From Promethearchaeia archaeon (GTDB lineage: Archaea; Asgardarchaeota; Lokiarchaeia; Sigyniarchaeales; SOKP01): a DNA stretch of 64,000 bases. The position numbers were made by a program, and so were the translations under genes. Below the pieces are notes generated by a model. That model searched no databases and had not been told where the DNA came from. It worked only from the letters and a program-made list of their open reading frames with translations. Positions 1 through 20,220 of this stretch are shown here, piece by piece. How positions within the stretch are numbered: position 1 is the first letter of the stretch; each line of letters opens with the position of its first letter. The stretch is from the NCBI GenBank assembly GCA_029856125.1, contig JAHQWJ010000136.1:1-64000 (forward strand), written 5' to 3'.

Positions 1-44
1 TATCTAGCAAATATTTTTATCATCTGATTTTATATCTTATTCTT

Positions 45-2099
45 ATGAAAGAATTGAATATAAAGAAAGTAATTATTCATAAATCAGGGATCTCTTATTT
101 TATTCTTGAGGGTTTGATTAAAGGAACCGGCACTTTTGAGTTAGAGTTTAAAATTGACGAAATGGATGACGTGTTAAAATCGCTCTTTGTTTTAGATACG
201 AGCGAAAAGGGTTATATTAGCTCGATTTCATACGATGCTGCTTTAGAAACATCCCAACTTTTAAAATCAATAATGCTCAATATTCCTGATAGAGGGTCTT
301 TATCGTCACTTATCACGCAGATAAAAGGAGCAGATGTTAAGTTAACCGTTGCTGGGGGAAAAACTATAGTAGGGACGATCATTGGAATTGAAGAAATAGA
401 AAAGATGAATAAAAATGAAAAAACAGTAGAAAAATTGCTAATTTTGCTCCAAGAAAATGACGAAATTTCTAAATTCAATTTTTCTGACTTCAAATCTTTT
501 GATATTCTGAATGAGGACATAAAAAAAGATCTTAAATTCTTCTTAGATACCGTTATATCAGGGAAGAAAAAAGACGCAAAAAAAATCAATATCAACTGCG
601 AATCGGGAGGGGACGATGAAGTTGAAAGGATCGTTTTTGTATATTATATCCGAGAAAGTCCAATTTGGAAAACGTCTTATCGTTTAATAATGAGCAAAGA
701 ACAAGCTCTAGAAGAAAAATGTCTCCTTTCTGGATGGAGCCTTATAGAAAACACAACTAATCAAGATTGGGAGAATGTAGAGTTATCCCTCGTAGCTGGA
801 ATGCCCGTCTCTTTCAAATACGAATTTTATCGCCCAATTTTTATACAACGCCCCGTAATACGCCCTCCGAGAGTCTTAAGCGTAAAACCTACTGAAATCG
901 AAGAAGGATTAGAAATGGAGGATTATGGGGAGTACGATTTGGATGCTGTAGAAGCCGCTCCTAGAGATATGAGGAAAAAGGCAAAAATGGGGCGGAGGGG
1001 GATGCCTCCACCTTCACCCGCACCTGCAGGAGGTGTTGGATTTAGTGGGAGAATGATGAGTGTGATGACTGATGATGCTCTTATGGACAAGGTAAAATCC
1101 CAAACGCAGGTACAAACTAAAGATTTAGGAGAACTCTTTGAATACAACATATCTAACCCAGTTACCATTAAAAGAAAACAATCTGCGTTAGTACCAATTT
1201 TAACAGAGGTAATTAAAGCGAGGCGAGTGTTGTTGTACAACAAAAACGAATACGACAAAAATCCTAACGCGTGTCTTGAGATCACAAATAATACAAATCT
1301 AACGCTTGAAAGAGGCCCTGTGACAATTATTTACGACGATAATTTAGCAGGTGAAGCCATCGTTCCTTTTCTCAACAAAGAAGACACGCGCTTGTTAAAT
1401 TATGCTGTAGAACAAGCAGTTTTAATTACACACGAAACTAAAACCGAAAGCTTAAGCGTACATAAAATTACTATAGGAAGTGGCTATTCTTACGAATATT
1501 ACTATACGAACATGATGACTACTTACAAAATCAAAAATAAAACTAACGAAGAGAAGGAACTCTATCTAGATCACCCTAAAACCCATGGTTATAATTTTAT
1601 TGAAAAACCTATTGATCCCGAAGAAACACCTAATTATTGGCGTTTTAAAATCACCTTGAAGCCCAAAGATGCTATAACTTTTAAATTAAAAGAACAAAGA
1701 GAGGATTACTCAAGCAACTACTTAAGAAATTGGTCTAGAGATGATATATTTAAGAGAGTTGGATTTTATGTTAAGCAGAAATTTATTAATGAAAAGTTGG
1801 AAACCCAATTAAAAGAGATCGCAGAATTAATCCAAGATTTAAACCAAAAGCAGAAAAAGCAATCTAAATTGGACGAAGAGAGAGACCAAATGTCTGACGA
1901 ACAATCAAGGCTCCGAGAAAATATATCTGTATTAGGAGAAGATACTCAATCCATCACTCTAAAGGAGCGGTATGTTAAAAAATTAAACGATCAAGAGAGT
2001 AGATTCGAGAAAATTTCTGTAGAGGCTAAAAAACTCAACAAAGAAATTGATTCATTAAACAAAACCATTGAAAATAAATTGAATAAACTAAAAACTTAA
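45..2099 (+). CDS. DUF4139-family protein with C-terminal coiled coil
   Basis: 684-aa ORF; motifs 'MDDVLKSL', 'WKTSYRL', 'ENTTNQDWENVELSLVAGMP', 'LFEYNISNPVTIKRKQSALVPI' typical of DUF4139 proteins; heptad-rich C-terminus. Confidence 0.7.
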   Translation: MKELNIKKVIIHKSGISYFILEGLIKGTGTFELEFKIDEMDDVLKSLFVLDTSEKGYISSISYDAALETSQLLKSIMLNIPDRGSLSSLITQIKGADVKLTVAGGKTIVGTIIGIEEIEKMNKNEKTVEKLLILLQENDEISKFNFSDFKSFDILNEDIKKDLKFFLDTVISGKKKDAKKININCESGGDDEVERIVFVYYIRESPIWKTSYRLIMSKEQALEEKCLLSGWSLIENTTNQDWENVELSLVAGMPVSFKYEFYRPIFIQRPVIRPPRVLSVKPTEIEEGLEMEDYGEYDLDAVEAAPRDMRKKAKMGRRGMPPPSPAPAGGVGFSGRMMSVMTDDALMDKVKSQTQVQTKDLGELFEYNISNPVTIKRKQSALVPILTEVIKARRVLLYNKNEYDKNPNACLEITNNTNLTLERGPVTIIYDDNLAGEAIVPFLNKEDTRLLNYAVEQAVLITHETKTESLSVHKITIGSGYSYEYYYTNMMTTYKIKNKTNEEKELYLDHPKTHGYNFIEKPIDPEETPNYWRFKITLKPKDAITFKLKEQREDYSSNYLRNWSRDDIFKRVGFYVKQKFINEKLETQLKEIAELIQDLNQKQKKQSKLDEERDQMSDEQSRLRENISVLGEDTQSITLKERYVKKLNDQESRFEKISVEAKKLNKEIDSLNKTIENKLNKLKT

Positions 2100-2222
2100 T
2101 AAAAAGTTTTAAAACTCCAATTTTTTTTTTATTACAGCAATCATTTGTTTGCTAACTCTATAAAAAAATAAATATAATACCAAAAATAAGATATAATGTT
2201 ATTATAACGATAGGTGTAAAAA

Positions 2223-2444
2223 ATGAGTATTGATGATCTTCAAGGACAAGTAGAAAAATTTAAGAGTGAAATGGACACGCTCGAAGAAGTTTGTGATACG
2301 CTTCCAGAGTGTAAAGAAGATGATGCGTGCGAAACCTGCAAAACCTACAAAAAAATTGATGCCCTTAATGTTAAAATCGAAGAATTAGAAGAAAAAATCG
2401 AATCTCTCTTGAGCGAAGATGACGACTACGACGACGACGATTAA
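2223..2444 (+). CDS. Small acidic coiled-coil protein with central four-Cys cluster
   Basis: 73 aa; upstream AGGTG SD-like motif; C-x5-C-x5-C-x2-C between two helices; Asp-rich tail. Confidence 0.6.
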   Translation: MSIDDLQGQVEKFKSEMDTLEEVCDTLPECKEDDACETCKTYKKIDALNVKIEELEEKIESLLSEDDDYDDDD

Positions 2445-2516
2445 TTCCTACATGCTTTAATTGTTATCTTTTTTATTTTTTTTTAATTTATGTTTTTATT
2501 TAGAGTCTATGCAGAT

Positions 2517-3419
2517 TTAGGAAGAAATTTCCTTTAGTTCCGCTATAGATAAATCAATTCCCTCATCAAATATTATTTTTGGTAGAAATCCAAGCATTTT
2601 TATTGCTTTACTAGGGCTTGCGTAAAATTTGTTGACATCGTAAGATCGTGGATTAGTAAATTCAACTGTGCTTTTGCTTCGAGTCTTTTTAATAATAGTG
2701 TCGGCTAATTGTTTTAATGAAATTGGAACCCCTGTAGATATGTTGAAATCGTCAAAAAGATGAGTATTCCTCTCTATTTCCTGAATACAGCCCCAAATTC
2801 CTTGAATTGTGTCATCAATATAAGTAAAATCGAAAATTTCCTCTCCTGTCCCGTTAATAATCAAATCTTCTTCGTTAAAAGCCTGTAAAATAAATTTTGG
2901 TATGACTCTATCTAAATGATCGTTTTTTCCGGTATAAACATTTGAAAATCTTAATACTCTTACTTTTAATCCATAATTCTTTGAGTATACTTTGCACAAT
3001 TCCTCTCCTGATAATTTAGAGACACCATATACGTTAATTGCATTGCGAGTTGACGATTCATTAACCGGCAAGATTGCAGACTCACCATATACCTCTCGAG
3101 AGGATCCAAATATCACCCAAGGGTAATTATTATCTGTACGTATCAGTCTTGCAGACTCGAGCACGTTAATCATTCCTCCAATATTGGTATTAACGCATTC
3201 TAAGGGATTTTCATGTGCTATTTTCACTCTACTCACTGCTGCTAAATGAATAATGCCATCTATGTCTAATATTTTGGATTGTAAAGCTGAGAAATCTCGA
3301 ACATCGTCCAATATATTATCCTTGATATCAAAATGTACAACTTCAATACCATTTTCTTCTAATAATTGCTTTAGAGCAGAACCAATGAAACCAGAGCTTC
3401 CAGTTAGTAAAATTTTCAT
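2517..3419 (-). CDS. NAD-dependent epimerase/dehydratase (extended SDR)
   Basis: TGSSGFIG Rossmann motif, HLAA, SSREVYG, YGVSK catalytic YxxxK, DFTYIDD. Confidence 0.9.
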   Translation of the reverse strand: MKILLTGSSGFIGSALKQLLEENGIEVVHFDIKDNILDDVRDFSALQSKILDIDGIIHLAAVSRVKIAHENPLECVNTNIGGMINVLESARLIRTDNNYPWVIFGSSREVYGESAILPVNESSTRNAINVYGVSKLSGEELCKVYSKNYGLKVRVLRFSNVYTGKNDHLDRVIPKFILQAFNEEDLIINGTGEEIFDFTYIDDTIQGIWGCIQEIERNTHLFDDFNISTGVPISLKQLADTIIKKTRSKSTVEFTNPRSYDVNKFYASPSKAIKMLGFLPKIIFDEGIDLSIAELKEISS

Positions 3420-3588
3420 GGTAGTATAATATAGCTTAGATTATAATTAAGATTTATCATCTTTGTCTATTTTATTGAATTAAATTAGATAATTATTTGA
3501 AAAAAAGGTTAAAAAAGAAAATTGTATTCTCTTTCTTGTATTTAATTAAATTACAAAAAAAATTATCGTAAAAGGACACGAAATTAAA

Positions 3589-4884
3589 ATGCCAGGTAAA
3601 AAATTTGAAGTTCAAGCAATAAAAGATGAAATTCTCGCAAAATTCAGCTTAAAAAATAGATATTCGTTTCTAAACAACAATTTAATGGCTATTCTTTCGA
3701 CGGAGGAATTTAATTTTTTAAAAGAAGTGCAAAGATTTTGCATGCGCTTCGAAAAGAAGAACGAAATTACACACAGCCCTGATGAGGATATCTACGACTG
3801 GATTCCTGCTTTTGGAGAAAAAGGCTATATTAGCCGCCAGCACTCGTTCGATGTTTGTGATGTGCAATACGAGCATTGGGGCTTAGCGATGGATTTAATG
3901 AGAAATATAGCTCTCGATTTTTTCGATCCGCAATTTGCTATGGGAGGAGGTGGTACCGTTTTGGCAATTAATCCGGTATACGAACATCACGAAAACGTCC
4001 CCGTGAGAATCGAAGCTCTTAAGGATTTAGTTACTGGAAAAACTCCAGGAGCCATTCTTATTACAGAACCAGAACGTGGATCTGATGCTGTGCATCAATT
4101 GACCACATGCGATGCACAGGACGACGGCAGCTTTATTTTAAATGGAGAAAAGATTTTTAATACTAATGCTCCTAAATCTAAATGGCTCGTTTCTTATGCA
4201 ACCGCCGAACAGAACAATGGAAATACGATGGCTCAATTTTTAATCGATTCCAATTGGGAAGGTTTAAAAATGGAACGTGTCAATGTTCCATGGATTCCGA
4301 AGCTTCATTTAGGTAAGGAGACGTTTACTAACTTACGAGTTCCTAAAGAGTACGTTTTAGGCGGCGTTGGAAAAGGACGGGAACACTTATTCGAAGGGCT
4401 AGTACCAGAAAGAATTTCTATTACAATGATGAGCGTTAGTGAGGCTTGGGGTGCTCTTACTTATGCTATAATCTACGCAAACAATAGAAAGCAATTCAAC
4501 CAGGAAATCCTTAAATTTCAAGGAGTCGGATTTTTACTCTCTGACTTGTGGGCAAGAACAACTAATTTATTTATAGGTCTTCTGAAATTTTGCGAATCGT
4601 ATGACGAAAAATTTGAAAAATTTGGTGGCGAGATTCCAAAGAATATCTCTCAGGCTATGGTTGCTTCTGCTAGCATGTTTAAATATCAAGCAGCAAAACT
4701 ATCCAAAAAAGTGTGTTACGAGAGTGCGAACATTATGGGTGGTGCTGGTTTGTGCGATAATACAATGATGCATGATTACCTTAACATTTCGAGAATCCAA
4801 GAAATCATAGGCGGAAGTAGACAAATTCAACAATATGTTATGTCGCTTTCACTCCGCCAATTATACAAAATGTCAGTTTCTTAG
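3589..4884 (+). CDS. Acyl-CoA dehydrogenase (paralogue 1)
   Basis: ITEPERGSD, LNGEKIFNTNA, RKQF, GGAG motifs. Confidence 0.9.
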   Translation: MPGKKFEVQAIKDEILAKFSLKNRYSFLNNNLMAILSTEEFNFLKEVQRFCMRFEKKNEITHSPDEDIYDWIPAFGEKGYISRQHSFDVCDVQYEHWGLAMDLMRNIALDFFDPQFAMGGGGTVLAINPVYEHHENVPVRIEALKDLVTGKTPGAILITEPERGSDAVHQLTTCDAQDDGSFILNGEKIFNTNAPKSKWLVSYATAEQNNGNTMAQFLIDSNWEGLKMERVNVPWIPKLHLGKETFTNLRVPKEYVLGGVGKGREHLFEGLVPERISITMMSVSEAWGALTYAIIYANNRKQFNQEILKFQGVGFLLSDLWARTTNLFIGLLKFCESYDEKFEKFGGEIPKNISQAMVASASMFKYQAAKLSKKVCYESANIMGGAGLCDNTMMHDYLNISRIQEIIGGSRQIQQYVMSLSLRQLYKMSVS

Positions 4885-15023: not shown

Positions 15024-15220
15024 GTGATAATCATTAACCACATTTACGATTCCGGGTTCGGATGGTACCGGGTACTATCCTGTATTACCATGACCGTAGC
15101 CGAAGCTACAGTTTGCAAGTTCCCATAGATTTTCAACTACAGTACTATCTGCAACGCAAAACAGTTTAACTTCCGGCGTTGTAGCTAATTGCTACGAGAT
15201 TATGTGGTTAAAACTATCAC
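15024..15220 (-). other. 5S precursor processing stem with BHB-like motif
   Basis: 15220-15202 pairs with 15043-15024 (19 bp, one bulge); ACG/CGU outer helix, CCGG/CCGG central helix (15176-15173 with 15055-15052), bulges AA(G) and AAU. Confidence 0.75.
15050..15170 (-). rRNA. rrf: 5S rRNA, circularly permuted gene (3' half - UUCG - 5' half)
   Basis: Minus strand reads GUUAAACUGUUUUGCGUUGCAGAUAGUACUGUAGUUGAAAAUCUAUGGGAACUUGCAAACUGUAGC-UUCG-GCUACGGUCAUGGUAAUACAGGAUAGUACCCGGUACCAUCCGAACCCGGAA. It contains the 5S hallmarks CCGAAC, GAAGUUAA (across the junction), AGUA/GAA loop E and UGGGAA. Helices I-V all pair. Length 121 nt. Confidence 0.88.
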
Positions 15221-15366
15221 TAACAACCATTTTATAACTTTGGCTATATTATCGTAAAATGCTTCATTTATATGGTTGTAAGTAATTGGAATAGTACGAG
15301 CTAGTAATTAAACTTTTTCATAATAAACCGTTAAACTTAAAAGGAATAGCAAATGACGCTTTAATT

Positions 15367-17517
15367 TCATTCTAATTTTCTAAGGTCGTTTTTGTGCCTT
15401 CTAAGTCCAACTAATCTAATTGTTGACGATATTCCTGCTAAACCTACAATCATAATTGACACAGTTACTAAAACGAAGTACGTAAATGGCTTAGGTACCG
15501 TAAAATTGAAGTTAGTTTCATAAGCAATTATTGAATTATTAGCATAATTTCTAACAACTATTAAAAATGAGTATATTCCTGGATATAATTTGTTTAAATC
15601 ATGTATAAATGTAATTTTATCTCTATCTAATTCATTCAATACTCTGTAAAAATTATACTCTTTAAAATTATTTTCAGATAACAATATAAAAACACTTTCT
15701 ATTCTTGAATGATTATCCAATGTAGTGATATTAAAACAAATATTATCTGAAACTGAAGGCGTAAGAGGACTCCAAGTAATGTTTTGAATTTCTGGGGAGA
15801 TCCCATTAGGAAGAGTTGTAAAATTAAATAGGGTCGGTATAATATTGTGCCCCGTAATATATACTTCATAAAACTCATTTGGTTGAGCGGGTAATCGGAA
15901 TTTTGCAGTTCCATTGACATCTGCATATACAGTTCTATATTTTCCATCACTTGAGTTTAAATGAACACTTGCGAATGGAATGGTTTTGTTTAATACATCC
16001 TTAATTGTAATTGATACTAACTGACCTTCATAAATATCCTCAGTAAAGGGGTTTAACACGTTCCTTGGAATATTGGTATAAATATTTAATTCAGGATCGC
16101 CCAATAAACAATAAGTTAAGATATTTTTCCGCTGCCATTCACTATACATAGATGTATAATAATTTTCGAATATCTCAGAATTCACATATGTTGTTTTAGA
16201 ATTATATAATGCTTTTCCTTGCTGGAATGATTTCTTTTCAAAAAATTCTTTCCAAAATAATTTTGCGTTTCCTCGATTTACATATTCTAGATTGGTATCA
16301 TTTTCTATATACCAAGTAACTCTGAGAGCTCCAATATAACCAATTGATCCTGCATTTTGTCTTTTAATTAGAAGTTCTCCAATACTATTATCTCCTATAT
16401 CATATGACGAAGTTGTGCACGCATCAGCATATAATAAAGAAGGCATATGATTATTAGCACTTGTTAATGCATCGTTACTATCATATACTTGAGAAGCTAT
16501 ACCAATACTAGTAAAGCTTGTAGGACTACCGTGACCTGCAAAAATAATGGTTGAATAACCAGTGTCAATTTGAGTATCAAAATTATTATTGTCTAAAATT
16601 TCTTCTTGATTAGGAGATGGAGGTGTTGATGGTGTAAAATTTCCTGTTGTTTTATGCAAATGAGTAAAATTCATTTCAGAAACTACATAGTTATTCCAAA
16701 TATATTCTGTTAGACGAGCTTCATCTTCAGTAGGTGTAATTGACGAGATGCCACCTGCTAATAACATGCTATTCATCCAGCCACCAATAAATGGTGCTTT
16801 CTCATATTTCAAACTTTTATTAACCATGATTTCAAGTTCTTCGGCAGAATTTGCAGGAAAACGCCCAACATAAACTTCATGTGTCCAAGAAATTTCATCT
16901 CTTCCATTCGAATTATACTTAGCTGATTCTCCCCAGATATTATCATTATCTTCATCCCAAGATCCAGTTAAATCTGCATAATAATAATCAGTCGGTTTGT
17001 ATATATCACCTCCAACAGCTTCATGATCTCCCAGATCTACATCTCTAACATCTGGATTATAAACATATCTAATTGGAATCCCTGTTGAGCTTTCTTCAGC
17101 ATCACCACATAATAGTACCCATTTAATATCTTCTTTTTCATAAAAAGACTTTATCATGTTTCGGATTTTTTCAGCATCATCTCTTCCAGGATATTTTGAA
17201 AAATTACTTAAAATAATAGTTTTTAAACCTTTTTCATTTTTCCATTCCATTAATGGTGTTACCGCTTCAATAAAATCAGTTTGATTTGGTGTTATAATTA
17301 ACATCTCAATTTTTGAGTCGTACCACTTACTATTATCTATTTCTGGCAACTGAGATAAGTCAATTTCAGGGATAGTACTAGCAATACTCAAGTTATTAAA
17401 ACTATTTTGATTACCTTCAGTTTGATTACTCAATTCTATCTTAAGGCTAACAACTGGAATAAGAACCAAGATAATTAATGAAAAAATTACACGTTTCTGT
17501 AACCCACGCTTTCCCAT
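15367..17517 (-). CDS. Peptidase C25 (gingipain-like), membrane-anchored
   Basis: 'WVLLCGD', 'TDYYYADL', 'VYVGRFP', catalytic 'AGHGS' and 'ADACTT', 'LLGDPEL'; N-terminal signal and C-terminal TM. Confidence 0.88.
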   Translation of the reverse strand: MGKRGLQKRVIFSLIILVLIPVVSLKIELSNQTEGNQNSFNNLSIASTIPEIDLSQLPEIDNSKWYDSKIEMLIITPNQTDFIEAVTPLMEWKNEKGLKTIILSNFSKYPGRDDAEKIRNMIKSFYEKEDIKWVLLCGDAEESSTGIPIRYVYNPDVRDVDLGDHEAVGGDIYKPTDYYYADLTGSWDEDNDNIWGESAKYNSNGRDEISWTHEVYVGRFPANSAEELEIMVNKSLKYEKAPFIGGWMNSMLLAGGISSITPTEDEARLTEYIWNNYVVSEMNFTHLHKTTGNFTPSTPPSPNQEEILDNNNFDTQIDTGYSTIIFAGHGSPTSFTSIGIASQVYDSNDALTSANNHMPSLLYADACTTSSYDIGDNSIGELLIKRQNAGSIGYIGALRVTWYIENDTNLEYVNRGNAKLFWKEFFEKKSFQQGKALYNSKTTYVNSEIFENYYTSMYSEWQRKNILTYCLLGDPELNIYTNIPRNVLNPFTEDIYEGQLVSITIKDVLNKTIPFASVHLNSSDGKYRTVYADVNGTAKFRLPAQPNEFYEVYITGHNIIPTLFNFTTLPNGISPEIQNITWSPLTPSVSDNICFNITTLDNHSRIESVFILLSENNFKEYNFYRVLNELDRDKITFIHDLNKLYPGIYSFLIVVRNYANNSIIAYETNFNFTVPKPFTYFVLVTVSIMIVGLAGISSTIRLVGLRRHKNDLRKLE

Positions 17518-17643
17518 GGAAAATCAAAATAATAGAAAGTGACTTACTATATAATTATATTCAGAATAAAAAATATATTTACACATATTATAAATAATGA
17601 AAAATAAGTATATGATTAAAAAGGTAAAACTCAACTATTTATT

Positions 17644-17871
17644 ATGCCACTTAGATTTAACACGTGTCCTTATTGTAATCAAAGAATAGTGTTTAAGATA
17701 GATGAAAAAGATGTAAATCCCTCTCAATATCCTGCTCCAATTTATATTCATCATACGAGTGAAGCTTGTGGAAAAACTTCAACTTTTTACGTTGATAGTC
17801 TTTTGCGAGTTTCCTATAAAGAGTTAGAGAAGAAATCTGGTGCAATTAAAACATTAAAAACAATAGATTAA
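17644..17871 (+). CDS. Small zinc-finger protein
   Basis: CPYC ... HH-x4-C, 'YPAPIYIHH', 'FYVDSLLRV'. Confidence 0.65.
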   Translation: MPLRFNTCPYCNQRIVFKIDEKDVNPSQYPAPIYIHHTSEACGKTSTFYVDSLLRVSYKELEKKSGAIKTLKTID

Positions 17872-18021
17872 CATTTCTCCCTAAGTCTTTATGAAAATCT
17901 TATTATTTGACGATTATTTAATTTAGAATACTTTTTACAATTTTTGTAGCGAGTTTAATAGATTTATTAAATTATTTCTTACCATAGTAGATTTTCAAAA
18001 AAAAGTTAATATATTGTAATT

Positions 18022-18501
18022 ATGAGAATATTAATTGTATACTTCACAATGAGTGGAAGGACGAAGAAGACTGCAGAGGGAATCGCAAGCGCTTTAACCA
18101 ATCATGATGTGAGCTATTTTCCAGTAGAGTTAACGGGTAAATTTATAGAAAAAATAAAAAAATTAGATAAATTCGAGAATAATGATTATTCGGCAATAGA
18201 GGCTGATTTTGAAACCCTTGATGCTTTAAATTATGATTTAATAATTATTGGCATGCCTACCTACGGAAACAAACCACCAAAAATCTTTGATGAGATCATT
18301 AATAGAATGAAAAATTTTGATGGAAAAAAAGCTATCGTATTTAGTACAGCTCGTTTTAGTGGCGGAAAATCACTAGATTATATGAAAGCAAAAGTTGAAG
18401 GCCAAGGGGCTCAAGTGATCGATCAAGCTAGATTTCGAAAGGTATTATGGATTGGAGTAAAAAATGCCATTAAATTTGGCAATCAACTCAATGAGAAATA
18501 G
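18022..18501 (+). CDS. Flavodoxin-like protein
   Basis: 'YFTMSGRTKKTA' FMN loop, 'YDLIIIGMPTY'. Confidence 0.85.
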   Translation: MRILIVYFTMSGRTKKTAEGIASALTNHDVSYFPVELTGKFIEKIKKLDKFENNDYSAIEADFETLDALNYDLIIIGMPTYGNKPPKIFDEIINRMKNFDGKKAIVFSTARFSGGKSLDYMKAKVEGQGAQVIDQARFRKVLWIGVKNAIKFGNQLNEK

Positions 18502-18643
18502 GAATTGATTTACAAATTATATCTTAATTATGTGATGATTAGGAAGTTTAATTTTTACAATTAAAAAATAGTAGTTATTTTTTTTCTCAAGAGAATTAAT
18601 AAAATTAAGAAATATTTAGTAAGAATAAAAAACTAAATCTATT

Positions 18644-20220
18644 ATGGTTTATCAATTAGAAGATGTAAAAGGCATCGGTTCTGAAATGGCTAAAAAATTA
18701 AAAGAAGCAGGCATTACGTCTGTTGAAATTTTAGCCTCGTCTAAGCCAGACAATATTGTGAAACTAAAAATCAAAGGTATTGGCAATGCAACAGCCTTGA
18801 GATTTATAAAAAGCGCAGAATCATTATTGAAGGAGCAAGCACCAGAAGTAGAAACTCCAAAACTAGATGTAATAGAGAAACCCAAAAAAGCAAAAGCAAC
18901 AAAAAAGGCAAAGCCAGGAAAAAGCACTAACCTTAAAGAACTAATAAAACAACAAGCAGAATGCAATATTGGACTAGTGGGCCATGTAGATCATGGAATG
19001 AATTAGTCGTATCGACAATTCCTATAAAGACCACGCTAGTCAAAGCTTTAACGGGTGATTGGACTGATAGACACTCTGAAGAACAAGAACGGGGAATTTC
19101 AATTAAATTGGGTTATTCTAACGCAACAATTTTGTATTGTCCTGAGTGCGACGAATATTTAACATACTATATGGCAGAGACTGCTAGAAAAAAAGGAAAA
19201 CCTAGATTTAATTGTCCAAGCTGTTCAGCGACCTTAGAATTTAAAAGAAATATCTCCTTTGTTGATGCTCCAGGTCACGAAATTTTAATGGCTACAATGC
19301 TGAGCGGAGCTTCCTTAATGAACGGTGCTTGTTTGTTAATTTCAGCTGATGAGAAATGTCCTCAGCCACAAACTAGAGAACATTTAGGTGCGTTGAAAAT
19401 TGCTAACATAGAGAACATTATAATTATACAAAATAAAATTGATGCTGTTTCAAAAGAACAAGCTTTAGAAAATTATAAACAGATTAAAGAATTTGTGAAG
19501 GATACTATAGCTCAAAATGCTCCTATAATTCCCGTTTCTGCCGTATTTGGAGCAAATCTTAATTTAATTGTTCGAGCATTTGAAGAAATAATTAAATCAC
19601 CAAAAATTCAAGAGGACGAGGAGTTCCAATTTTTAGTTGCTCGTTCATTCGATATAAATCGCCCCGGCACGGAAATTAACGATTTAAACGGTGGGGTAAT
19701 TGGTGGATCGGTTTTAAAAGGAAAGGTTCAAGTTGGAGAAGTAATTGAGATAAGACCGGGATTACGAGTAAAAAATAAATATCAACCGCTCAGAACCAAA
19801 ATAGCTAGCATAAGTCAAGGATCTAATTTATTAGAAGAAGCCAAGCCAGGAGGGCTAATTGGATTAGGGACCATGTTAGATCCTGCTTTGACGAGGGGAG
19901 ATTCTCTAATAGGACACCTAGTTGGTAGGCCTGACACATTGCCTGAAATACTTTCTGAAGTCGAAGTACAAGTAAACCTTTTGGAAAGAGTGCTGGGATC
20001 GGAAGTACAAATGAAAGTTCAACAGTTAAAACACAACGAGAAGTTATTACTAGTCGTTGGAACTGAAAAAACAGCTGGAACTGTTATAAAAATCTTAAAA
20101 AATTCCTATATACTTAGTTTAACTCCACCAATTTGTGCTCCGGTGAATTCAATATTTGCGATTTCAAGAATTATAAATCGGCGTTATCGTTTAATAGGTT
20201 ACGGTAAAGAGGTAAACTAA
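18644..20220 (+). CDS. eif2g: Translation initiation factor aIF2 gamma with N-terminal helix-hairpin-helix domain; two exons (18644-18998 + 19028-20220), 515 aa after splicing
   Basis: ORF 18644..19006 ends '...NIGLVGHVDHG' and ORF 18961..20220 continues 'KTTLVKALTG...EEQERGISIKLGY...DAPGHE...NKID...RYRLIGYG'. Removing 29 nt gives a continuous 1548-nt frame. Confidence 0.92.
18999..19027 (+). other. 29-nt bulge-helix-bulge (BHB) mRNA intron
   Basis: Central 4-bp helix AUGG(18993-96)/CUAU(19022-25), 3-nt bulges AAU(18997-99) and AAA(19026-28), intron hairpin GAAUU-A-GUCG-UAU-CGAC-AAUUC, exon pairs UC/GA. Confidence 0.88.

Follow-up and report, generated by a model that had tools for sequence, protein, structure and literature searches.

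The window, a 64,000-nucleotide stretch of a contig from a Promethearchaeia archaeon (JAHQWJ010000136.1), carried a circularly permuted 5S rRNA gene on its minus strand (15170-15050) and, within 4 kb of it, an interrupted gene for the initiation factor aIF2-gamma. The Rfam 5S model recovered the former only as two half-matches on the minus strand in swapped order, with the 3' half (15205-15107, 16.5 bits) coming before the 5' half (15095-15010, 15.1 bits). No second 5S-like sequence was found elsewhere in the host genome searched (3.69 Mb, 99% complete). The native ends of the rRNA were linked, as helix I was closed by CUGUAGC-UUCG-GCUACGG (15111-15094), and this UUCG cap, or variants of it, occurred across the genomes of the genus.

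A canonical BHB motif has a 4-bp central helix and two 3-nt bulges on opposite strands. The flanks of the permuted 5S gene paired as a 19-bp stem (fold z = -4.5), and the leader ACG-CCGG-AA^G paired with CCGG-AA^U-CGU (carets mark cuts or joins). This BHB was of a relaxed form, with a CCGG/CCGG central helix, a 3' bulge of 3 nt, a 5' bulge of 2 nt (or 3 nt without the inner helix), and an inner helix of GUU/AAC only. Cutting after the second bulge base gave a predicted product of 121 nt, joined as ...CCGAACCCGGAA^GUUAAAC..., in agreement with the 5S consensus.

The aIF2-gamma gene, present as a single copy in the genome, was split at GHVDHG^KTT by a 29-nt canonical BHB intron with central helix AUGG/CUAU and bulges AA^U and AA^A. 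The inner helix comprised GAAUU/AAUUC (5 bp) plus GUCG/CGAC (4 bp), and the outer helix had 2 bp, one mismatch and then 1 bp. The predicted splice joins GGA A^AG ACC, yielding GHVDHG-K-TTLV, while the unspliced message terminates at a TAG within the intron. The sequences confirmed that both 5' cuts, in 5S and in aIF2-gamma, fall after GGAA, as the sequence-only reading had claimed.

Table 1. Features of the permuted 5S rRNA gene and the aIF2-gamma gene in the window.
Feature	Position	Strand	Detail
5S processing stem, 3' strand (AUGUGGUUAAUGAUUAUCAC)	15024..15043	-	minimum-energy fold
5S BHB, 3' half	15046..15055	-	central CCGG 15055-52, bulge AA^U 15051-49, outer CGU 15048-46
5S BHB, 3' cut site	between 15050 and 15049	-	
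Permuted 5S rRNA, 121 nt	15050..15170	-	two Rfam half-matches in swapped order; 3' half (helices V/IV, loop E), UUCG-capped helix I, 5' half (helices II/III, loop C)
5S BHB, 5' half	15170..15179	-	outer ACG 15179-77, central CCGG 15176-73, bulge AA^G 15172-70
5S BHB, 5' cut site	between 15171 and 15170	-	
5S leader hairpin GUAGC-AAUUA-GCUAC, between stem and BHB, discarded	15181..15195	-	sequence differs among species
5S processing stem, 5' strand (GUGAUAGUUUUAACCACAU)	15202..15220	-	pairs with 15043-15024 in minimum-energy fold
aIF2-gamma exon 1	18644..18998	+	ORF; Pfam HHH_5, E 3.9e-11; N-terminal helix-hairpin-helix extension, Lys-rich linker, G domain start to GHVDHG and first Lys-codon base
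aIF2-gamma BHB intron, 29 nt	18999..19027	+	central helix 18993-96 with 19022-25; bulges 18997-99, 19026-28
aIF2-gamma intron inner helices	19000-04 with 19017-21; 19006-09 with 19013-16	+	
aIF2-gamma exon 2	19028..20220	+	remaining G domain, domain II, eIF2-gamma C-terminal domain; Pfam GTP_EFTU, GTP_EFTU_D2, eIF2_C

Conservation among relatives

Predicted cuts in 20 genomes of the genus yielded 5S products of 120-121 nt, and the circular consensus fold of these 20 had the three-arm 5S layout. The BHB was maintained in them with compensatory changes; the central helix was paired in 80/80 cells, with one position appearing as C-G, U-A or U-G. The outer helix measured 3-6 bp in 20/20 genomes and changed in a compensatory manner between A-U, G-C and C-G, its first three pairs holding in 40/42 cells, compared with 6-18/42 in a control in which the partner was slid. 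The core of the stem was UUAACCAC/GUGGUUAA in most precursors of the genus and UACCAUAU/AUAUGGUUA in some. Two permutation points were found in the genus, as the genes of G015 and G023 were opened in loop C instead; cuts at the canonical positions there rebuild GGUC^CCAUCC, which is unbroken in other species. Both permutation points led to the same 120-121-nt 5S, solely with cuts at canonical BHB positions. A canonical 5S gene scored above the Rfam cut-off in 1 of 41 genomes of the organism's own family and in 12 of 14 of the sister family. Judging by the near absence of a detectable canonical 5S throughout the family, the permutation looks far older than the mRNA introns. Extra BHB introns were also observed within the 5S gene of some relatives.

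The aIF2-gamma intron was present in 6 of the 22 genus genomes that were readable at the site and, apart from this genome, occupied the same position in G003, G014, G013, G011 and G002. It was absent from 16 genus genomes and from 6 of another family, and GHVDHGKTT was unbroken in all 22 of these. Among the six intron-bearing genomes the hairpins were of two unrelated sequences, both of which pair; G002 carried an unrelated 8-bp hairpin, with CCAU replacing CUAU. The close relative G007, whose aIF2-gamma protein is 93% identical, was without the intron. The best database match, a protein of 520 aa with 96% identity across exon 2, was considered as a product of a spliced transcript and rejected, as the size of its contig (11 kb) points rather to the genome of a relative that lacks the intron. 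Arrival of the intron together with a swapped 5' gene segment was considered too and set aside: although G007 is only 58% identical in the N-terminal domain, its DNA becomes similar again from ~105 nt ahead of the intron site, which leaves such a link unsupported.

Further interrupted genes and the splicing enzymes

More BHB introns had been anticipated among the mRNAs of this genome, and they were found. The single-copy uL11 gene was interrupted by a BHB intron between exon 1 (Ribosomal_L11_N positions 1-25) and exon 2 (27-58), and a uvrA-like gene also carried one. Interruption was confirmed in both elf1 and cobO, for whose inserts a simple finder obtained no canonical BHB fit, while cbf5 was uninterrupted. 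The uL11 intron occurred in 7 of 15 genus genomes with three hairpin types, and the intron sets differed, G007 having that of uL11 only and G014, G011 and G002 that of aIF2-gamma only. Neither intron was found in the other families examined, and neither had a match in the genome by blastn-short that would indicate an intron sequence family. The interrupted genes span translation, transcription, repair and cofactor metabolism; translational genes account for 2 of ~7 known interrupted protein genes, somewhat above expectation, and interruptions may be biased towards them. GGAA was present at the 5' sites of 5S, aIF2-gamma and the uvrA-like gene and absent at uL11 (GCAUAA), and AA-initial bulges were general (12 of the 14 bulges examined).

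A genome-wide scan, by which the sequence-only reading had proposed to reveal further introns, yielded no excess of motifs. Scans covered both strands in strict and relaxed form, with ORF-joining, AA-bulge and hairpin filters. The strict scan of the whole genome returned 133,138 matches against 132,641 in a mirrored-topology control, and further scans returned 310,814 against 309,908, 115 against 117 and 137 against 139. Among this output, aIF2-gamma, uL11 and the uvrA-like gene alone were recognisable by eye. Because the BHB motif was as common in the mirrored control, it carries no weight by itself, and the case therefore rests on the restored products and on the relatives. A motif-free pilot comparison of 300 kb with G007 gave 13 indels; these included one tRNA intron and no clear case of an mRNA intron.

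The EndA subunit type, whose determination the sequence-only reading had proposed as a check, was found to be the two-subunit (alpha + beta) form. The alpha subunit kept the catalytic His, Tyr and Lys, and its loop lysine aligned with K44 of A. pernix; in the beta subunit, the catalytic His was replaced by Ser. RtcB was encoded by one gene. A two-subunit EndA of this type was reported to have relaxed specificity (PMC5829648), and the loop lysine and subunit type suggest a broad-specificity enzyme here as well.

Processing model and alternative readings

The findings in this study make it likely that each locus is a true substrate of the archaeal tRNA-splicing pathway and that the two do not form a coordinated regulon, representing instead two cases of a lineage-wide spread of BHB motifs into non-tRNA genes. 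Judged from their sequences, the 5S and aIF2-gamma RNAs very probably need the tRNA-splicing enzymes, and we infer that they are actually cleaved and ligated; that both are credible BHB substrates, as was proposed earlier, was borne out by the restored products and by compensatory changes in relatives. A minus-strand transcript would serve as the 5S precursor, with leader and trailer folding into the stem plus the relaxed BHB. EndA would then cut each strand behind CCGGAA, and RtcB would ligate the ends, rebuilding helix III and loop C of the 121-nt 5S, which is most likely a closed ring, as the tetraloop caps helix I. The P-loop GHVDHGKTT of aIF2-gamma would be restored only once a young 29-nt micro-intron is taken out of its mRNA. 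The uL11 and uvrA-like genes would carry similar micro-introns; the differing, patchy occurrence of each suggests that such introns are often gained and lost, tolerated by a broad-specificity EndA. We assume that splicing is, most likely, constitutive.

A 5S precursor that is cut and left unjoined, or trimmed by other nucleases, would instead give a linear permuted rRNA whose termini lie within helix III or loop C. Such molecules have precedents in the 23S rRNA of P. furiosus (PMC7758197) and in organelle 5S (PMC4267664), and the ligated junction had no match in metagenome contigs searched with two sequence patterns. However, a linear 5S requires no particular cut position, yet an uninterrupted 5S is obtained at both permutation points only by canonical BHB cuts and joining. 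The genome encodes RtcB, and archaeal RNAs excised at BHB motifs are generally circularised (PMC3326292, PMC4731332); a linear product is unlikely in our judgement. For aIF2-gamma, the alternative to an intron is a pseudogene, an assembly error, a programmed frameshift or a translational bypass, and a 29-nt hairpin that follows a GGA codon and holds a stop codon is loosely like the bypass of phage T4 gene 60. Here, though, no matching GGA landing codon follows the hairpin, and a +1 or -1 frameshift cannot skip 29 nt. Six independent assemblies share the position of the insert and retain both exons in intact, conserved form; the gene is single-copy, the pairing is kept by two unrelated hairpin sequences, and a non-intron origin of the break is exceedingly improbable.

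The sequence-only reading had gone further and suggested a joint EndA/RtcB regulon over the translation apparatus. Under such a regulatory gate, controlled splicing of the 5S RNA, the aIF2-gamma message and further translation transcripts would adjust ribosome assembly together with initiation, along the lines of HAC1/XBP1 splicing in eukaryotes. In this genome BHB processing is required for three translation components (5S, aIF2-gamma and uL11), each single-copy, the TAG in the intron ends unspliced aIF2-gamma, and by a naive estimate a second non-tRNA substrate would fall within 4 kb of the 5S gene by chance in ~2% of cases, although that figure is post hoc. The members of a regulon would be conserved together across the lineage and set apart by a shared cis signal. 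Instead, the aIF2-gamma and uL11 introns were patchy and mutually independent, occupied different sets of genomes and did not extend to other families examined, and G007 manages without that of aIF2-gamma. The shared signal was limited to generic A-rich bulges, with GGAA missing at uL11, and functionally unrelated genes (uvrA-like, elf1 and cobO) were interrupted too. The 5S and aIF2-gamma genes were neighbours in ~15 genus genomes, intron present or not, so their proximity most simply reflects a genus-level gene neighbourhood that is wider than the intron-bearing genomes. A gate of this kind is very unlikely, the claim of a joint regulon was not sustained, and the idea adds little at present. 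We also hold it to be highly doubtful that the tRNA-splicing enzymes are an obligatory, possibly rate-setting step for ribosomes and initiation in this Asgard family, acting through a ring 5S, aIF2-gamma and uL11. If such a step were real, EndA/RtcB activity would link the capacity for translation to the state of RNA repair or stress, and the arrangement would foreshadow, in a prokaryote, mRNA splicing of the IRE1/RtcB type.

Relation to known systems

The preferred reading, of separate substrates of the tRNA-splicing pathway, has its closest mRNA parallel in the BHB intron of cbf5 pre-mRNA in Desulfurococcales and Sulfolobales (Watanabe 2002; Yokobori 2009, PMC2738675), where a short intron in a coding sequence likewise restores the frame upon removal. 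That system also shows lineage-specific gain and loss in hosts with a two-subunit EndA, and cbf5 was the sole archaeal coding sequence with confirmed pre-mRNA splicing in the literature searched (PMC2738675). Here, in contrast, splicing is predicted, aIF2-gamma and uL11 are the genes hit, an Asgard archaeon carries several interrupted genes in one genome, and turnover occurs within a genus. HAC1/XBP1 splicing (by IRE1 and a tRNA ligase or RtcB) is similar in its short, non-spliceosomal mRNA intron and in joining by a tRNA-type ligase, but it is regulated and uses a dedicated stress-sensing nuclease, whereas here neither a sensor nor regulation was seen and the introns are not conserved.

For the 5S gene, a similar arrangement was reported in the permuted SRP RNA gene of Thermoproteus (Plagens 2015, PMC4731332), in which the 3' part also comes first, leader and trailer form a BHB, and the fold is restored via a circular RNA. 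The permuted tRNA genes of Cyanidioschyzon merolae share the same layout and the same logic of BHB cutting and ligation. Unlike those genes, the present one encodes 5S rRNA with tetraloop-capped native ends, which makes a ring the probable end product; a single genus shows two alternative permutation points, and relatives' genes contain additional BHB introns. Archaeal 16S and 23S processing (PMC12918454, PMC7758197) likewise involves a long stem with a BHB, EndA cleavage, RtcB ligation and circular rRNA, but the genes are co-linear, and 5S rRNA was stated to be exempt from circularisation in the cultured species of that study (PMC12918454). The literature searched contained no description of an archaeal 5S gene in permuted form, and one paper described 5S genes as not predictable in Asgard genomes (PMC8813620).

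If RNA confirms the predicted splicing, a close relative of eukaryotes would rely on tRNA-type cutting and joining to produce an essential initiation factor, a ribosomal protein and its 5S rRNA. Gene callers would then be mis-annotating such genes as missing or frameshifted, and mRNA introns would have been gained and lost inside a single genus.

Layout and predicted product of the permuted 5S rRNA gene

Rfam at gathering thresholds gave no match within the window, and ARAGORN found no tRNA there. With relaxed thresholds, the 5S model returned two minus-strand half-matches, with the 3' half (15205-15107) lying ahead of the 5' half (15095-15010), and no further 5S-like match was found anywhere in the whole genome, for which the assembly is 3.69 Mb and 99% complete. 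Pairing of two CCGG tetramers could form the central helix (4 bp) of a bulge-helix-bulge (BHB) motif, with ACG/CGU as the outer helix and two AA-initial bulges on opposite strands, which is the canonical topology; the motif was classed as relaxed, not canonical, because its 5' bulge has only 2 nt if G15170 pairs. Cutting each strand after the second bulge base and joining the ends would yield a product of 121 nt, whose predicted junction, CCGAACCCGGAA|GUUAAAC (the bar marks a predicted cut), agreed with the 5S consensus CCCGaACuCggAAguUAAG. Scans of metagenome contigs gave no match to this ligated junction. The circular consensus fold consisted of a capped-hairpin helix I, a II/III arm and a V/IV arm.

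Features of the 5S and aIF2-gamma region, 5S inserts of relatives and further interrupted genes
Feature	Location	Strand	Remarks
Processing stem, first strand	15220-15202	-	19 bp
Small leader hairpin	between stem strand 15220-15202 and 15179	-
Leader side of BHB	15179-15170	-	ACG-CCGG-AA|G
5S 3' half	after the 15179-15170 element, before helix I	-
Helix I	15111-15094	-	closed as CUGUAGC-UUCG-GCUACGG
5S 5' half	end element 15055-15046	-	end, CCGG-AA|U-CGU
Processing stem, second strand	15043-15024	-
Peptidase C25-family gene	15367-17517		insertion span 15344-17573, lacking in relatives G003 and G007
Flavodoxin gene	18022-18501		insertion span about 17992-18546, lacking in G003 and G007
aIF2-gamma intron	18999-19027	+	29 nt
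uL11 intron	contig C72, 4371-4398		28 nt; exon 1 to 4370, exon 2 from 4399; locus L062/L064
uvrA-like gene insert	contig C149		31 nt; CUGG-AA|A ... CUAG-AU|U
5S loop C inserts	loci L014, L011, L013, L012, L020, L021		six relatives, two sequence types
5S helix IV inserts	loci L019, L022		two relatives

Of 24 further genomes from the genus, 21 contained the locus (blastn), and the products predicted for 20 genomes were all 120 or 121 nt long. The central helix was paired in 80 of 80 cells, and one of its positions was C-G in nine genomes, U-A in nine and U-G in two; the mature 5S fold does not account for this covariation, since the leader copy would be discarded. In the outer helix, the first three pairs were kept in 40 of 42 cells (distinct flank pairs), compared with 6-18 of 42 when the partner was slid, and they varied compensatorily (A-U, G-C, C-G). 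Two genomes of the same genus, G015 (locus L023) and G023 (locus L024), had a second permutation point, in loop C, with a leader reading UAGCG-CCGG-AA|CCAUCC and a 3' end reading ACCCGG-UC|U-CGCUA. Cleavage at the canonical sites would give GGUC|CCAUCC, identical to the contiguous sequence in other species, and a 120-nt product co-linear with their 5S. This alternative permutation amounts to a natural experiment and is the strongest evidence for the 5S model. Some relatives carried additional BHB-like inserts of 30-31 nt inside the 5S gene, and taking these out at the AA| positions restored the consensus 5S.

The permutation was examined within the genus, and the family-level figures concern the presence of a canonical 5S. 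In an order-level search, a canonical 5S above the Rfam cut-off was found in 1 of 41 genomes of the organism's own family, compared with 12 of 14 sister-family genomes, in which it was often multicopy and in tandem. The single own-family exception (genome G072, 80.8 bits) may be contamination. Literature searches produced no account of an archaeal 5S gene in permuted form, nor of Asgard coding genes that carry BHB introns; the closest published cases were the intron in cbf5 (PMC2738675), the permuted Thermoproteus SRP RNA (PMC4731332) and the BHB-dependent circular 16S/23S rRNAs (PMC12918454, PMC7758197).

Introns in aIF2-gamma and other protein genes

The open reading frame starting at 18644 ended at a TAG directly past GHVDHG, with TTLVKALTG continuing in a second frame. 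Excision of the 29 nt joined GGA A|AG ACC and restored GHVDHG-K-TT. The motif was canonical, with outer pairs C-G and U-A, the central helix AUGG/CUAU and the bulges AA|U and AA|A, and the inner helix of the intron was GAAUU/AAUUC and then GUCG/CGAC. The genome has one copy of the gene, and it alone among five translational GTPase genes was interrupted. An insert occupied the identical site in the relatives G003, G014 (30 nt), G013, G011 and G002, with a U-G replacement in G011 and a wholly different 8-bp hairpin in G002, in which CCAU was fully Watson-Crick. GHVDHGKTTLV was uninterrupted in 16 other readable genomes of the genus and in six genomes of another family; G024, with a short open frame and a locus ending before the site, was outside this count. 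The intron-less genomes included G007, whose protein body was 93% identical. Relatives with and without the insert fixed the intron boundaries, and the same-site inserts together with the uninterrupted genes excluded assembly error and pseudogene decay as the source of the broken frame.

The sequence-only reading had proposed both loci as BHB substrates, and both are credible as such, the 5S gene through its swapped half-matches, its standing as the sole 5S-like sequence, the restored 121-nt product and the covariation within the genus, and aIF2-gamma through the canonical motif, the regained P-loop reading and the same-site inserts. We infer that both transcripts would be cleaved and ligated, that the 5S would take a ring form and that splicing would be constitutive.

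The window's aIF2-gamma also carried an N-terminal helix-hairpin-helix extension of ~100 aa (HHH_5, 18644-18997), found as well in most of the 120 best database matches; matches to this protein bore the names Promethearchaeota or Lokiarchaeota. Two divergent types of extension occurred within the genus, those of the window's genome (G000) and G007 being 58% identical, compared with 93% in the body.

Genome scans for BHB motifs returned matches no more numerous than a mirrored-topology control, so a motif-only intron census was impossible, and the uL11 and uvrA-like introns were recognised by eye among ORF-joining candidates. The uL11 insert, GCAU-AA|A ... AUGC-AA|A, divided a single Pfam domain, Ribosomal_L11_N (positions 1-25 in exon 1, 27-58 in exon 2). 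It was carried in three hairpin types by G000, G007, G013, G024, G020, G004 and G009, and was missing in eight other genomes of the genus and in every other family examined. In the sole elf1 and cobO genes, inserts with stop codons interrupted conserved motifs; a simple finder returned no canonical BHB for these inserts. The classical case, cbf5, had no interruption in this genome.

Splicing endonuclease and tRNA genes

The genome encoded one RtcB ligase and two paralogues of the splicing endonuclease EndA, ~200 aa each. The best alignment of paralogue 1 was to the alpha (catalytic) subunit from Aeropyrum pernix (3p1z_B, E 1.7e-33); this paralogue retained the catalytic Tyr, His and Lys and, by count along the alignment, had a lysine opposite A. 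pernix K44, a residue of the specific loop linked to broad specificity (PMC5829648). Paralogue 2 had Ser in place of the catalytic His and is therefore beta-like. The pair agrees with the two-subunit EndA with an L1 loop published for Asgard archaea (PMC5829648), and suits the relaxed 5S motif.

ARAGORN recognised 30 tRNAs in the whole genome, 14 of them with introns, and many more tRNA genes probably escape recognition because of their interruptions; these figures are in line with the heavy interruption reported for Asgard tRNA genes (bioRxiv 10.64898/2026.10.13.758758). One prediction contained an implausible 1666-nt intron. A tRNA-like gene of G007 (contig C1, L098) held a 30-nt insert in the apparent D-arm region that was absent from contig C26 of G000, and this would be a tRNA intron differing between close species.

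Distribution of introns and the proposed joint control of translation

The 5S and aIF2-gamma genes lay next to each other in divergent orientation, separated by 1 to 4.6 kb, in ~15 genomes of the genus, with or without the intron, and lay wide apart in the sister family. Their distance was about 1 kb in G003 and G007; in the window, genome-specific insertions of a flavodoxin gene and a peptidase C25 gene extend it to 3.4 kb. Of the genes between 5S and aIF2-gamma, G003 and G007 kept only the one for a small 75-aa CxxC protein (17644-17871 in the window), which had no Pfam match.

The sequence-only reading had further suggested that EndA and RtcB may gate ribosome assembly and translation initiation jointly. 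Two of ~7 interrupted genes were translational, compared with ~0.3 expected by chance; the count is small, and interruptions of conserved genes are noticed preferentially, which bears on this excess. Interrupted genes also served transcription, repair and cofactor metabolism. The two translation-gene introns had patchy distributions unlike each other, the uL11 intron occurring without that of aIF2-gamma in G007 and the reverse in G014, G011 and G002. Intron sequences formed no shared family. The GGAA noted at both 5' sites did precede the cut at 5S and aIF2-gamma, and also at the uvrA-like site, but not at uL11, and AA-initial bulges were general (12 of 14 examined). Joint gating was not supported; the introns differed in distribution, the gene functions were unrelated, the neighbourhood was kept without the intron, the introns formed no family, and nothing in these data pointed to coordinated control. 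Its expectation of further hidden mRNA introns was borne out by uL11 and uvrA-like, with elf1 and cobO interrupted; genome-wide motif scans gave no excess over the control, and the EndA type it had asked about was two-subunit. The pattern is consistent with small BHB elements being gained and lost often in a lineage whose endonuclease tolerates them.
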